This document shows positions 5,650 through 34,519 of a DNA stretch of 64,000 bases, in pieces. The translations under genes and the position numbers were made by a program. The stretch covers positions 462-64,461 of the forward strand of contig DAOVPV010000005.1 of the NCBI GenBank assembly GCA_030629005.1, written 5' to 3'. Origin of the DNA: a bacterium (GTDB lineage Bacteria; Babelota; Babeliae; Babelales; UASB340). How positions within the stretch are numbered: the first letter of the stretch is position 1; each line of letters starts with the position of its first letter. The notes under the pieces were generated by a model. It saw nothing but the letters and a program-made list of their open reading frames with translations. It had not been told where the DNA came from and ran no database searches.

Positions 5650-7068
5650 ATGAAAAAAATTAATCTATTTTTATTAACAATTATATTTTTTAATAATATT
5701 TTTTGTTCAAATGTTATTCCAGGAAGTGATCTTTACCCAAAAGAGATTGAATACGTAGAAAATAGAACTCCATTTGTTAACGCTGCTATAAAACTTATAG
5801 CAAATCAAAATTTAGAAACAGAAGAAGTCGAAGATATGGAAATAACAACTTTTCCAAGAATATCTCTATGTTTTAGTGGTGGTAGCTATAGATCTATGAT
5901 AGCAAGTCTTGGCTTTATGGCAGGGGCTGAACAAAATAATTTACTACATGCTGCAACATATATGTCCGCTCTTTCGGGCTCTTGCTGGTTATTAATACCA
6001 TTATTAAACATGAACTGTGAAACTGTTTTTTATAAAAGAATATTAGAAAAAAAAGTAAATAAAAATTTCTTTGATAAAGAAACTTTAAACATAGATAGTA
6101 TTAAAAGCTTTCTTTCAGAGACTGGTCAAAATAAATTAATTGACTTTTGGAGTGCATCTTTGGCTCATCATCTTTTAGGAGACATTGCACCTAATCTAAC
6201 CTTTGAAAAAATAAGAAAAAATCTAAAAACTTTAAACCAATATCCATTTCCAATATTTAATTGCGTTATTGCAAACTCAAAAGACCCTCAAGATGATTTA
6301 CCTTATAATTTTTTAGAAATAACACCATACACAACATATTCTAAAGTTCTTGATAGTACTATAAAAACCAAATACTTAGGCAACGTCTTTAAAAATGGAA
6401 ACCAAAAAACTTATAACCCAGAACTACCTGAAAGTTTTTTTATGGGATTTTTAGGAAGCCCATTTTGTTTATCTGGCGGAGATCTTTTAAATTTTTTATT
6501 ACTAGAGCTTGGTGAATTTTGGCACATAGATGACTACAGATATTTAAATTGGTTCGAACAAAAATTCTATAATTTAAAATTATATAAACACAGGATTTGT
6601 CCTGCAAAAATTCCTAATTACTCTTTAGGCTTAAAACAAAGCAAACTTAGACAAACAAAAAATCTAGAACTAGTTGATGGTGGATTTTGTTTTAATCTAC
6701 CAGCAGAACCATTATTCAGAAGAAATACCGATATTATAATTTTTTTTGATGCTTCTGTAGATGCAACAACACCAAATTATCCAGAACTACAACTTGTCGC
6801 CAATTATGCAAAAGAACATAATATTACATTTCCAAACATAAAAACACCATACCAAGAATCTGAAAACTTAAAAATATTTTTTGACCCTGAAAATCCAGAT
6901 AGTCCAATCATAATTTATTTTACTAATCCAATAACAAAGCCAACATTAAAACTTAGATATGATCCTAAAGAATTTAGGACTCTTTATGATGCAACAGAAC
7001 AATTGGTTTTAGAAAATACTCAAAACATTGCCAAAGCCATTAGTTGGAAAATTGCTCAATTAAATTAA
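5650..7068 (+). CDS. Secreted cytosolic-phospholipase-A2-type (PLA2_B / lysophospholipase catalytic domain) lipase
   Basis: 472 aa; N-terminal leader; 'CFSGGSYRS' (GGGxR-like oxyanion motif), 'ALSGSCW' (GxSGS nucleophile), 'LVDGGFCFNLP' (catalytic Asp region); GAAGGA RBS upstream. Confidence 0.75.
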   Translation: MKKINLFLLTIIFFNNIFCSNVIPGSDLYPKEIEYVENRTPFVNAAIKLIANQNLETEEVEDMEITTFPRISLCFSGGSYRSMIASLGFMAGAEQNNLLHAATYMSALSGSCWLLIPLLNMNCETVFYKRILEKKVNKNFFDKETLNIDSIKSFLSETGQNKLIDFWSASLAHHLLGDIAPNLTFEKIRKNLKTLNQYPFPIFNCVIANSKDPQDDLPYNFLEITPYTTYSKVLDSTIKTKYLGNVFKNGNQKTYNPELPESFFMGFLGSPFCLSGGDLLNFLLLELGEFWHIDDYRYLNWFEQKFYNLKLYKHRICPAKIPNYSLGLKQSKLRQTKNLELVDGGFCFNLPAEPLFRRNTDIIIFFDASVDATTPNYPELQLVANYAKEHNITFPNIKTPYQESENLKIFFDPENPDSPIIIYFTNPITKPTLKLRYDPKEFRTLYDATEQLVLENTQNIAKAISWKIAQLN

Positions 7069-17741: not shown

Positions 17742-17794
17742 AATGTAGCCAATTTTTTCAAAAACCAACCCAACTTAACATTAACCAACAACAT

Positions 17795-17957
17795 CGCCCA
17801 ACGCTTACGCATAGGGCTACCACAAAAACGCCTGCTTACGCAGACTCATTGTAAATTATAATTATTTTAGAAATAAAATATCACGTAAATTTATTAAACC
17901 AACATAGCCTGCGTTAGCGGGCGACTCTACGGTAGCCCTATGCGTAAGCGTTGGGCG
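17795..17957. mobile_element. GC-rich inverted-repeat element (REP-pair or MITE-like), same family as 32976-33287
   Basis: Arms 17795-17843 and 17908-17957; outer 27 nt (CGCCCAACGCTTACGCATAGGGCTACC) are perfectly inverted; AT-rich ~64-nt core; GC-rich against the AT-rich background. Confidence 0.8.
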
Positions 17958-17973
17958 TACAAAAAATAAAACT

Positions 17974-31739: not shown

Positions 31740-32870
31740 TTATAAATTTAATTTTTTTCTAATTATAGAAACAATACGATTACAACTATTCCCGTCACCA
31801 TAAATTGATGACATTTTCTCCGTACCTTTTTTTAGATGATAGCATTTTTCTAAAGAAGATAAAATTAATTTTTCATTAGTTCCAACAAGATCTTCCGAAC
31901 CATCCCAAACGCCCTCCCAACGCTCGGTTACATCTCGCAAAACAATAACATGTTTGCCCAAACTTACAGCTTCTTCTTGAATCCCGCCAGAGTCCGTAGC
32001 AATAAAATCTGCATTTAATAAAATATAAATCAAATCTTTATACAAAAGAGAATCAGTCATAAAAATATTTTTAACATCCGAAATTCCAGACTCTTTTATA
32101 GCACCCAAAACATTTGGGTTTGGATGTTTAGGATAAATAAATAAAACATCTTCGTGCAATTGTGCAAATTTTTTAATACTACTAAAAATTCGCAAAAGCC
32201 CCGGACCAAAAGATTCTCTTCTATGCGCAGTAAGTAAAATTATTTTTTTATTTTCACTTTTGGTTTTATTTACAATATCTTCTATTATTTTGTCTATTTT
32301 TATTTGCCCAAACAAAATTAAATCTTTCATCCAGAACAAAGCATCAACAACAGTATTACCAGTGCAAAAAACTTTATTTCTATCTACACCTTCGGATAAT
32401 AAATTTGCAGTAGAAAATGCAGTTGGCGCAAAATGAAAATCTGCAATTTGAGAAACCAATTTTCTGTTTAATTCTTCTGGAAATGGAGAGCGCATATTGC
32501 CAGTTCTAAGTCCAGCTTCAACATGCCCTGTTGGAATATTCATGTAAAACGCAGCAAGAGCCGCCGCCATTGTGGTTGTTGTATCACCATGAACTAAGAC
32601 TAATATTGGATTAACTTTTTGATAAACCTCACGAACTCTTTCCATTATTGTTCTTTGTAGATAAAAAAGATCTTGCCCTTCTATCATTACGTCAAGATTA
32701 AAATCTGGAGAAACTTTAAAGATATCGAAAACTTGCTGTAACAAATCAGAGTGCTGAAATGTCGCGCATAAAAGTGTGTTTATGTTTTCTTTTTTGAATG
32801 CAATATAAAGGGGCACAAGCTTTATAGCCTCTGCCCTTGTACCTACAACTAAAAGAATTGGTCTTTGCAT
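31740..32870 (-). CDS. wecB: UDP-N-acetylglucosamine 2-epimerase (non-hydrolysing)
   Basis: 376 aa; 'ILLVVGTRAEAIKLVPL', 'HVEAGLRTGN', 'TDSGGIQEEA'. Confidence 0.9.
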   Translation of the reverse strand: MQRPILLVVGTRAEAIKLVPLYIAFKKENINTLLCATFQHSDLLQQVFDIFKVSPDFNLDVMIEGQDLFYLQRTIMERVREVYQKVNPILVLVHGDTTTTMAAALAAFYMNIPTGHVEAGLRTGNMRSPFPEELNRKLVSQIADFHFAPTAFSTANLLSEGVDRNKVFCTGNTVVDALFWMKDLILFGQIKIDKIIEDIVNKTKSENKKIILLTAHRRESFGPGLLRIFSSIKKFAQLHEDVLFIYPKHPNPNVLGAIKESGISDVKNIFMTDSLLYKDLIYILLNADFIATDSGGIQEEAVSLGKHVIVLRDVTERWEGVWDGSEDLVGTNEKLILSSLEKCYHLKKGTEKMSSIYGDGNSCNRIVSIIRKKLNL

Positions 32871-32975
32871 ATTACTCTAACCATTTCGTCTTTTTATTAA
32901 TAAAATTATTAAACTATTTCAATTAGCTTTGCATCTTTGATGTATAATACAATCCGTTCTACCAGTCAACAATAC

Positions 32976-33287
32976 CGCCCAACGCTTACGCATAGGGCTA
33001 CTACAAATACGCCCGCTCACGCAGGCTTATTCTTTGTAATAGAGCTATGGCGTTCTTCTTGGTTTAAAATATAATTTTTTATTTTTTGTAAAGAACTACG
33101 ATCAACAGGAAAAACACCGTAACCTTGTTGCCAGGAAAAATCAGATAAAAAAATAAACATAATTATTTTTCATAGTTAATCTAACAATTACAACCTAAAT
33201 AAAATCCTATTCTTAAACATTTATCAATAAAAAAAAGCCTGCGTAAGCGGGCGTATTTGTGGTAGCCCTATGCGTAAGCGTTGGGCG
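32976..33287. mobile_element. Decayed REPtron: ~50-nt GC-rich inverted arms enclosing a Y1 (IS200/RAYT-like) transposase remnant
   Basis: Arms 32976-33025 and 33238-33287 match 48/50 as inverted repeats and share the CGCCCAACGCTTACGCATAGGGCTAC core with 17795-17957. Confidence 0.8.
33017..33160 (-). pseudogene. C-terminal remnant of an IS200-like / REP-associated tyrosine transposase
   Basis: 47-codon ORF 'MFIFLSDFSWQQGYGVFPVDRSSLQKIKNYILNQEERHSSITKNKPA' matches the family C-terminal pattern WQxGYxxFSV...YIxNQExHH; the N-terminal HUH part is absent. Confidence 0.65.
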
Positions 33288-33366
33288 ATATTGTTTTCTT
33301 ATATTTTAATATTAATACATTCATAAACCTTATGATTTTAATCATATTTAAAATTAAAATATTTGC

Positions 33367-33399
33367 AAAAAAAATAGCCTGGCTTTAAAAACCAGGCTA
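33367..33399 (-). terminator. Rho-independent terminator downstream of the kinase gene
   Basis: TAGCCTGG / CCAGGCTA stem with a 9-nt loop, followed on the minus strand by T8. Confidence 0.7.
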
Positions 33400-33424
33400 T
33401 AACTTAAATCCCTTTTTATAATCT

Positions 33425-34519
33425 TTAATCTGATAAACCTAAAAAACCGTCCAATTTTTCCGTAATAAAACCAATATCCGGCCGCTCTTCTAAATTCAAA
33501 AATAACATTTTTCCAACTAAAACACCTAAAGGTCTCTTTTTATTTTTAAAAAAATATTTCCATATATTTTCATAATTAGGCACCAAAAGATCCCGTTCAA
33601 CATATTTTTTATATTTTAAAGCACGCAAGTATAGATTAAATTCAACCTCACCTGAAGAAGGTCTCCCCCTTGCACGACTCAATAACCCTGTATTAACTAT
33701 CCTTATATTCTTACTTATCCATGAAATAGCGCTTGGATAAAAATCTTTTTTTCTTAACATCTTATAAAAAATATTACCTAAGGCATAAACATCAACAGCC
33801 CTGGTATAACGATAAGTTGAAATCTTAACAACCTCCCCGTCTCTTTCCTCTTCAATCTCACGAAATGGTTTTAAAATCTCCGGAGCTTTATATCCTGTAG
33901 TTCCTCTAGAATAACCCTCTTCGAAAACCTCAAATTCATTAAGTTTTACCGAATAATCAAAATCAATAAGTTTAGCAACAAACCATTTTTTTTCGGGATC
34001 ATTAACTAAAACAATATTTGCAAGCTTCATATCTCTATGAATAACATTATTATTATGTAAATATTGCAAACCTTTAGATATATCCAAAAAATAATTTAAC
34101 TTTTCTTCCATACCCATTATTTGTTTATTATTTCTAAAATATTTATCAAGGCTATTTGTTGCTAATTCTAAAATTATAAACCTTGAAATTTTAGAATATG
34201 CAAAAGCTTTTATCAAATTTTCATGAACATAGATATTATAAAAATTTACCTCTCGCGTTAAGGCTGTCAAACCTTTATCATCAAAAGTAAAAAAAACAAC
34301 CGCAACACCCTTATCATCCCAATTAAATTTAAAAACCTCTTTGTAAGTTCCCTTTCCAAGAAAGTTTTCTTCACTTCGAATTTCACCAGTTCTAGATTTA
34401 ATATTCTCGACATCGTTGTCTTCAGCATCTAAGTCAATTAATTGAGCTGAAGAATAAAAAGATATACTTAAAAATAGAACTAATAGTGATAAATATTTTT
34501 TATTAAATTTAAAAAACAT
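33425..34519 (-). CDS. Leader-bearing eukaryotic-type Ser/Thr protein kinase
   Basis: 364 aa; 'LGKGTYKEVFKF' Gly loop, 'HRDMKLANIVL', 'DFDYS', 'GTTGYKAPE', 'DVYALGNIF'; hydrophobic leader. Confidence 0.85.
   Translation of the reverse strand: MFFKFNKKYLSLLVLFLSISFYSSAQLIDLDAEDNDVENIKSRTGEIRSEENFLGKGTYKEVFKFNWDDKGVAVVFFTFDDKGLTALTREVNFYNIYVHENLIKAFAYSKISRFIILELATNSLDKYFRNNKQIMGMEEKLNYFLDISKGLQYLHNNNVIHRDMKLANIVLVNDPEKKWFVAKLIDFDYSVKLNEFEVFEEGYSRGTTGYKAPEILKPFREIEEERDGEVVKISTYRYTRAVDVYALGNIFYKMLRKKDFYPSAISWISKNIRIVNTGLLSRARGRPSSGEVEFNLYLRALKYKKYVERDLLVPNYENIWKYFFKNKKRPLGVLVGKMLFLNLEERPDIGFITEKLDGFLGLSD

Follow-up and report, generated by a model that had tools for sequence, protein, structure and literature searches.

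Two inverted arms around the remnant of a Y1 transposase gene

The window, by which we mean the whole stretch of 64,000 nucleotides that was analysed, corresponds to positions C9:462-64461 of the genome G000, a draft of 1.05 Mb with 30% GC distributed over 15 contigs, in agreement with the AT-rich and small genome that the earlier note had supposed. G000, like all the genomes of relatives used here, was assembled from metagenomes; its contigs are designated by C-numbers, and its congeners by G001, G002 and G003. Two arms located at 32976-33025 and 33238-33287 appeared on direct reading as reverse complements of each other at 48 of 50 positions (two mismatches), and a repeat search extended the pair to 32968-33041 and 33222-33295 (74 nt at 89%). 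The arms contain 60% GC, compared with 24% in the 212 nt that they enclose and 29% in the whole window. The features of the locus are the following:

32976-33025, minus strand: arm 3' of the gene remnant, with the order hairpin A, spacer, GTAG, hairpin B on this strand
32977-33001, minus strand: hairpin B of this left arm with its 5' GTAG, GTAG followed by CCC-T-ATGC-GTAA-GCGT-T-GGG, with a T.T mismatch
33011-33026, minus strand: hairpin A of the left arm, GCCTGC-GTGA-GCGGGC and then GTATTTGTAG, weakly terminator-like
33017-33160, minus strand: ORF of 47 aa, MFIFLSDFSWQQGYGVFPVDRSSLQKIKNYILNQEERHSSITKNKPA, which runs into the arm
33047-33154, minus strand: 3' gene remnant, equivalent to codons 85-124 of the intact copy, with WQQGY (catalytic tyrosine) and YILNQEERH kept
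33155-33173, minus strand: 5' gene stub, composed of the original start (33173) and the next six codons, ATGAAAAATAATTATGTTT, MKNNYV (MKNNHV in the intact copy on C6)
33174-33237, minus strand: leader or former promoter region, 64 nt versus 79 nt in the intact copy, with small deletions
33238-33287, plus strand: arm 5' of the gene remnant (66.6 bits against the arm profile, nhmmer)
33237-33252, plus strand: hairpin A of this right arm, followed by the spacer
33262-33265, plus strand: GTAG of the right arm
33265-33286, plus strand: hairpin B of the right arm

Each arm is composed of two related hairpins with GTAA or GTGA loops, which accounts for the internal sub-repeats reported in the earlier note. 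On one strand, the arm plan comprises hairpin A (GCCTGC-GTRA-GCGGGC), a 9-nt spacer, the tetranucleotide GTAG and hairpin B, an imperfect palindrome interrupted by the T.T mismatch; hairpin A is devoid of GTAG and is preceded instead by [AT][AG]AG. The left arm scored 65.6 bits against the arm profile (nhmmer); its hairpin B matches the family pattern exactly (C9:33438-33462), and that of the right arm matches it at C9:33723-33747. The 47-aa ORF ends in a stop codon that hairpin A of the left arm overlaps. Folded as single-stranded DNA, the arm strand reached -12 kcal/mol with a z of about -2.5 to -2.8, versus about 0 for its complement, which behaved like shuffled sequences. The REP-like imperfect hairpins expected from the earlier note were therefore found, on one strand only, and the well-folding strand is the opposite one at the two ends of the unit. 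No family came near any gathering score in an Rfam search of positions 32700-33600.

Anatomy and decay of the fossil gene

The 47-aa peptide, recognised beforehand from its letters as the C-terminal part of a Y1 transposase, matched positions 94-121 of the 121 of the Pfam profile PF01797 (Y1_Tnp) with an E value of 1.1e-4 and 22.7 bits (cut-off 23), and a search with the same profile over the whole G000 genome recovered the fossil site at E 7e-4. NCBIfam models returned nothing meaningful for a piece as short as this. Since the borderline Pfam score is insufficient alone, it is the tblastn match with an intact paralogue located on contig C6 (E 3e-15, 73% identity) that settles the Y1 homology of the fossil.

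Comparison with this paralogue, to which the 3' remnant is 86.7% identical over 105 nt, indicates how the gene decayed. A frameshifting deletion of 233 nt removed nucleotides 20-252 of the coding sequence, that is, codons 7-84 including the HUH motif DHIH, and left its junction between 33155 and 33154 at a TTT microhomology. The HUH half is thus absent, as the earlier note stated, but through an internal loss that spared the start codon with its six codons, and not through truncation of the N-terminal end. The fossil is also short of another 9 nt and carries small deletions in its leader. Read from the original start, the frame meets a stop after 10 codons, while the ATG of the 47-aa ORF was created by the deletion junction or adjoins it and lies out of frame with the original start. 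The fossil leader retains ATTGATAAAT and AATAGG-TTTTATT; its local alignment score by itself corresponds to a p of about 0.09, and its homology is therefore deduced from collinearity between arm and start codon. As the frameshifting deletion includes HUH and was accompanied by further losses, the fossil is unable to produce an active enzyme, and the gene can be considered dead, as first proposed. Its arms are still intact despite the decay of the gene. The 35 codons shared by the fossil and the C6 copy differ by seven synonymous and six non-synonymous changes, and the conserved HH has become RH; this small sample suggests that both copies diverged as working genes for a while before the deletion took place. 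Given the intact twin elsewhere in G000, the fossil itself is an ordinary, routine pseudogene.

An intact paralogue between the same arms

The PF01797 search detected two places in G000, the fossil and an open gene on C6 whose match (C6:6011-6346, 96.4 bits) lies above the cut-off. This gene (C6:5990-6367) encodes 125 aa, MKNNHVF...EDHIHILV...SWQQGYGVFTVDRHSLQKMKKYILNQEEHHKS, with the HUH motif DHIH at residues 56-59 and the catalytic tyrosine Y99 within WQQGY, and it was likewise called in an independent ENA assembly (ERZ23498683) that carries the C6 locus. One arm is located to its left (5857-5910) and two in tandem to its right (6381-6432 and 6468-6521), so that the intact unit of about 0.58 kb consists of an inverted arm, a 79-nt leader, the 125-aa gene and an inverted arm. 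Fossil and C6 unit are collinear over their whole length between the outer arm edges, and an alignment of the two loci gave no similarity outside the arms. The nucleotide identity of the fossil with C6 exceeds that with any congeneric copy (78.5% at most), which identifies it as a within-lineage paralogue.

The search for an intact RAYT gene proposed in the earlier note was consequently successful insofar as an intact Y1 paralogue exists, even if it is not a canonical RAYT. As to the proposal that the repeat family is no longer mobilised from this copy, with an intact C6 paralogue between the same arms the family retains a potential enzyme in trans.

A small family of GTAG-tagged hairpins dispersed in the genome

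A profile built from five arms was run against G000 and found complete arms at only four loci, the two Y1 loci and two gene-less pairs, while single copies of hairpin B were located elsewhere:

17793-17958 of the window (C9:18254-18419), no strand assigned: gene-less inverted arm pair, with arms at 17793-17849 and 17905-17958 and a spacer of about 55 nt
C2:8331-8462: gene-less inverted arm pair, detected with the arm profile
C8:159276, C2:68979, C2:87964 and C6:27477: single hairpin-B copies, with a disrupted one at C14:36248

The arms are thus not confined to their two places at the window locus, a restriction that the earlier note had named as a refutation of its reading. A pattern search with hairpin B retrieved 13 copies in G000 (seven forward and six reverse) against none in the control, all of them extragenic and five between convergent genes; no tRNA or tmRNA gene of G000 (40 in total) has a copy closer than 2.6 kb. 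Several singlets show a double foot, GTAGCCC...GGGCTAC. In its structure hairpin B agrees with a REP, which is defined as an imperfect palindrome (20-40 nt) whose 5' foot carries GT[AG]G. Its copies are dispersed and always extragenic, and number only 13 in the 1.05 Mb of G000 and four in G001. The arms therefore belong to a family of imperfect hairpins with a GTAG tag that is small and specific to the species. When contigs of JGI metagenomes were scanned for exact matches to the flank-arm junction and to hairpin B, none was obtained.

Two GT-C-related ORFs of G000 are kept apart by the gene-less pair at 17793-17958 and some 70 nt of AT-rich sequence at its flank. In G001, G002 and G003 the orthologues of these ORFs overlap by ATGA, which couples their translation, and the hairpin pair is absent from the junction. 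Comparison with the congeners thus identifies the pair as a lineage-specific insertion by which the two genes are uncoupled. The alternative that it had split a single GT-C gene was discarded, given that the ORFs are already separate in the three congeners. The two gene-less pairs (166 and 132 bp) might be units reduced by further deletion in which the transposase leader persists; when their spacers were compared with the C6 leader, local alignment did not surpass shuffles (p values of 0.12-0.75), and global alignment with cheap gaps retrieved AT-rich scraps only.

A second GC-rich hairpin element of about 30 nt (for instance CCGTCCGCCGTAGCCTTGGCGAAGGCTGGAT) was observed nested in the loop region of hairpin A or B in the Y1 arms of G002 and G003, and a similar insert occurs inside a solo hairpin B of G000 (C14:36248-36300). 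The hairpins of one repeat family thus seem to serve as insertion sites for another family.

Conservation and position of the unit in relatives

A match to the C6 protein was found in 28 of 61 related genomes, with identities of 68-73% in the three congeners, which carry one or two copies each, and of 42-58% in other genera of the family. All family-level loci inspected, with the exception of one on a short contig, show the REPtron layout of the window locus and of C6, the gene being placed between inverted arms of 23-110 nt. The order of hairpin A, spacer, [G/T]TAG and imperfect hairpin B is kept across genera, while each genus has stem sequences of its own. The comparison of these loci shows that, in the family relatives examined bar that one, the arm-gene-arm design is conserved with the arm sequence co-varying. 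Within the genus, none of the 14 predicted pairs is broken and three show compensatory changes, and the arms of one unit resemble each other more than the arms of different units. The four copies of its own hairpin-B variant in G001 correspond to two around the gene and two elsewhere. Regarding the protein, the genus copies yielded dN/dS values of 0.16-0.36, which indicates selection on this short product, and they keep both HUH and the tyrosine.

The unit does not keep its place. Counterparts of the genes that flank the C6 unit are lacking next to the units of G001-G003 and of other family members, and units are non-syntenic between G000, G001 and G003; the copy on contig C31 of G003 is syntenic with that of G002. 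The second copy in G003 (C34) shares 95.5% identity with the C31 copy over 489 nt of unit plus arms and nothing outside, and the similarity between the G001 and G003 units is limited to the unit itself. Upstream of wecB, the site of the fossil in G000, neither the fossil nor hairpins were found in G001-G003 and G005, where a different ORF abuts wecB.

The interval between a SurA-like gene and wecB is variable. In G000 it holds a eukaryotic-type kinase paralogue (33425-34519) besides the fossil, and in G001-G003 and G005 an unrelated coiled-coil-like ORF without tblastn match in G000. The kinase-like gene has its own intrinsic terminator immediately behind it at 33374-33400 (minus strand), a 12-bp stem ATAGCCTGG…CCAGGCTAT followed by T8, a canonical structure which makes it independent of the Y1 arms for termination.

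A solo arm or a decayed trace of it lies directly 3' of uppP/bacA in G001 (L048 1429-1474) and G003 (L050 1427-1464), the position that the right arms of C6 occupy in G000 (C6:6468-6521). C6 may hence be the old resident site, perhaps ancestral for the unit in this genus, with the window copy as the derived one. In addition, the UppP protein of G000 (C6:6489-7532, minus strand) contains an in-frame GC-rich insert of about 36 aa with the repeated motif …GMTNAECGPRMTNAECGPGMPRPSH…, which is absent in the congeners, so that the alignment with them is divided into residues 1-74 and 111-337; the insert resembles a further hairpin-repeat insertion, in this case within a gene. Within the same order, G042, G058 and G055 carry 4-11 copies, several of them identical, of an IS200-like gene whose product is 28-33% identical to the C6 protein, and many of these matches include one in-frame stop within the aligned span. 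These genes have the appearance of genuine IS200 elements in multiple copies and are to be distinguished from the arm-flanked units.

Affiliation of the enzyme

The C6 protein passed the NCBIfam model of IS200/IS605 transposases (NF033573, 83 bits, cut-off 55) and failed the REP_Tyr_transpos model (NF047646, 29.4 bits, cut-off 80). Its best PDB matches were 2fyx, 2xm3 (ISDra2 of Deinococcus) and 2a6m (IS608), together with archaeal IS200-like proteins, and the E. coli RayT did not appear among the matches with an E of 1 or less. In C6 and in all genus copies the motifs read DHIH, WQ and YILNQEEHH, equivalent to Y---Q--HH and not to Y---NP. In the classification of Quentin, Siguier, Chandler & Fichant (2018, PMC6006769, Table 1), the motifs DH[IV]H, WQ and YIKNQKEHH belong to subclass 1.2, described as close to IS200 and without IS properties, with low copy number, a C-terminal tail of 30 aa and the entry 'REP: no', and found mainly in Cyanobacteria and Bacteroidetes, while canonical GT[AG]G REPs were recorded near subclasses 2.2, 2.4, 2.5, 2.7 and 2.8 only. 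The enzyme therefore fits TnpAY1 subclass 1.2, in an assignment made by motif only, and by its sequence it is not a canonical class-2 RAYT. This modifies the initial identification of a REPtron with its RAYT, of which the layout and the REP-like arms stand and the class of the enzyme does not.

The proteins of this genus resemble subclass 1.2 in motifs, core length, low copy number and diverged paralogues, but differ in that their genes are flanked by GTAG hairpin arms and their host has a Dependentiae-type reduced genome. The C-terminal tail of about 30 aa is missing in the genus copies, which end 2-6 residues after HH with a total of 125-128 aa; a tail of the form HHk..sFe.Ef..lL is kept in other genera of the family and in homologues of Verrucomicrobia, Planctomycetes and Bacteroidetes.

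Distant homologues in other phyla also possess long inverted arms, of 105-273 nt, with GTAG-footed hairpins. In a Verrucomicrobiae MAG (CAWJVG010000005.1, locus L007) the flanking hairpin occurs in 27 copies against none in the control, most of which form inverted pairs at a distance of 180-280 nt, and in a Phycisphaeraceae MAG (CAZMCC010000066.1, locus L003) 15 exact hairpin copies were counted, often paired about 200 nt apart, the count with one mismatch being noisy in relation to its own control. The hairpin arms of these Verrucomicrobiae and Phycisphaeraceae genomes contradict the 'REP: no' entry of subclass 1.2, a subclass that no paper found in our literature search had revisited. At another locus, L008, two copies of a full-length subclass-1.2-type Y1 gene are arranged in tandem.

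Relation to known systems

The REPtron of E. coli (tnpA-REP, encoding RayT/YafM, flanked by REP/BIME; Ton-Hoang et al. 2012, PMC3333891; Messing et al. 2012, PMC3479197) shares with our unit a Y1 HUH gene placed between inverted GTAG-tagged hairpins, the extragenic dispersal of these hairpins as singlets and inverted pairs, and the tandem multiplication of arms on one side, represented here by the two right arms of C6. It differs in its enzyme, since the protein described here fails REP_Tyr_transpos, has Y---Q--HH instead of Y---NP and comprises 125 aa only. It differs also in its repeats, as 13 copies are present here and not hundreds, the arm is a fixed doublet of two different hairpins, and the whole unit has been duplicated and relocated among congeners.

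Dispersed inverted hairpin pairs with short spacers, as well as flanking repeats that are enzyme-specific and co-diverge with the enzyme, are likewise known from the REPIN-RAYT systems of Pseudomonas (Bertels & Rainey 2011, PMC3116915; Bertels et al. 2017, PMC5581495). The RAYTs of groups 2 and 3, which belong to class 2, are inherited vertically in single copy and accompanied by large populations of REPINs (PMC3116915, PMC5581495), whereas the repeat populations found here are tiny and the gene-bearing unit changes place.

The nearest published analogues of such a low-copy unit are the REPtrons that Di Nocera, De Gregorio & Rocco (2013, PMC3733652) described in species with few or no dispersed REPs, and the TIR-flanked genes which they named TIRYT. 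TIRYTs and TIRtrons also consist of a Y1 gene between longer terminal inverted repeats, which may themselves constitute small repeat families, in REP-poor genomes; they are mostly of subclass 2.1, with HTH tails and inverted repeats of the GGGGWSAS type (PMC3733652), while the arms considered here are made of GTAG-footed hairpins and the protein is of class 1. Overall, the system is a REPtron-like variant of modest novelty, in which a type of enzyme is newly linked to such hairpin repeats.

Probable mobility of the unit and competing explanations

The window locus most probably represents a dead, internally deleted copy of an arm-gene-arm unit whose Y1 enzyme is presumed to copy or move hairpin-bounded DNA. 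From the positions compared across the congeners it follows that arm-bounded DNA, whether it carried the gene or not, was copied or moved during the divergence of the genus, either by Y1 transposition or by recombination between arms. In at least two cases the unit was duplicated from arm to arm, with homology ceasing exactly at the outer arm edges, and such duplications, together with the different sites occupied in congeners, indicate that the unit behaves as a low-copy mobile element. Judging from these comparative positions, its behaviour would be IS-like rather than that of a fixed, domesticated RAYT.

By analogy with the TnpA proteins of IS608 and ISDra2 and with the TnpA-REP of E. coli, the Y1 enzyme might bind GTAG-footed hairpins in single-stranded DNA and cut beside them, and would thereby copy or move the DNA that they bound. 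The mobilised DNA could consist of gene-less hairpin pairs or, by the same analogy, of the whole unit including its own gene. The fossil would then be a non-autonomous derivative, with arms on which the C6 enzyme could still act in trans. Several points weigh against this explanation. Inverted arms do not agree with the IS200/IS605 model, which places the hairpins of both ends on one strand; the copy number is very low for a REP family; the Pfam score of the peptide by itself falls just short of the cut-off; and dispersed arms that recombine or undergo gene conversion could likewise account for the copying or deletion of the gene. The edges of the arms were also inspected for duplicated target sites or a conserved target motif, and displayed only a weak AT-rich resemblance.

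Recombination of this kind is the core of the best surviving alternative, a classical domesticated REPtron in which the Y1 gene is an immobile host gene whose product mobilises nothing but hairpin pairs, in trans, and its copies and positions result from homologous recombination or gene conversion between pre-existing arm pairs. Such a system would have inverted, GTAG-tagged arms, gene-less pairs, single hairpins and a low copy number, as observed, and the high divergence of within-genome paralogues in the family agrees with it. The solo arm 3' of uppP, common to G000, G001 and G003, suggests an old resident site, and the greater likeness of arms within a unit than between units is consistent with conversion. 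However, of the NCBIfam models the protein passes that of IS200 but not that of RAYT, the homology of two independent duplications ends exactly at the outer arm edges, and arms that measure 50-60 nt and are about 90% identical offer recombination a short substrate. We regard the domesticated REPtron as a possible but rather unlikely explanation.

Quite improbable is that the locus is a dead copy of an ordinary insertion sequence of the IS200/IS605 family (as IS200, IS608 or ISDra2) whose arms would be the subterminal hairpins of its left and right ends. Ends of this family carry subterminal hairpins on the same strand and no terminal inverted repeats. This family includes the closest proteins by sequence and by solved structure, as the NF033573 score and the ISDra2 and IS608 TnpA matches indicate, and it shares the small size of the element, its single short gene, its hairpin ends and the decay into partial copies that is typical of insertion sequences. 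Nevertheless, the arms of the window locus are inverted at 48 of 50 positions and their good folds lie on opposite strands at the two ends, tnpB is lacking, and the two G000 copies are 87% identical and not near-identical. Moreover, gene-less pairs and singlets are scattered through the genome in the manner of REPs, and the motif Y---Q--HH is that of a subclass described as devoid of IS properties.

That the 47-aa ORF encodes a functional small protein, for instance a C-terminal Y1 fragment that modulates the intact enzyme, is a very remote prospect. The ORF is open, possesses an ATG and keeps the region of the catalytic tyrosine, and its seven synonymous versus six non-synonymous differences represent an excess over expectation which reveals some past constraint; but its start codon, which originated at the deletion junction, lies in another frame than the original one, erosion has affected the promoter-proximal leader, HH has changed to RH, the tail of the ORF reads into the arm, the locus is lineage-specific and no promoter-like site points into the ORF. 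Finally, it is hardly conceivable that the arms are mere GC-rich terminator or insulator hairpins with a Y1-like peptide nearby by coincidence, for although hairpin A followed by GTATTTGT yields a weak terminator score facing outward on both outward strands and several single copies lie between convergent genes, the arm-gene-arm layout with co-varying arms recurs at the other Y1 loci examined in the family and in two other phyla, and the neighbouring kinase gene is provided with a canonical terminator of its own.

Starting from the preferred reading, a dead copy of a mobile arm-gene-arm unit, a broader scheme can be put forward tentatively, as a speculation that we hold to be doubtful. Y1 proteins with Y---Q--HH might be the enzymes of a widespread class of GTAG hairpins, of which the Dependentiae unit would be a still autonomous representative, an 'autonomous REPIN' intermediate between IS200 and REPtron, with the fossil and the gene-less pairs as successive non-autonomous derivatives.

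Significance

These data place a REPtron-like system in a phylum whose members are obligate intracellular bacteria, presumably the Dependentiae, for which our literature search found no paper reporting REP sequences or RAYTs. The system rests on an IS200-proximal subclass of Y1 enzymes that the reference classification (PMC6006769) records as REP-less. A gene-bearing unit, an internally deleted copy and gene-less hairpin pairs are found side by side in one 1-Mb genome. Hairpin insertions also matter for genome annotation, as one of them parts a gene pair that is translationally coupled in relatives. With an enzyme of 125 aa and 13 substrate copies, this unit would constitute an unusually simple test system for the origin of REP and REPIN populations from insertion sequences and for the handling of inverted hairpins by Y1 enzymes.
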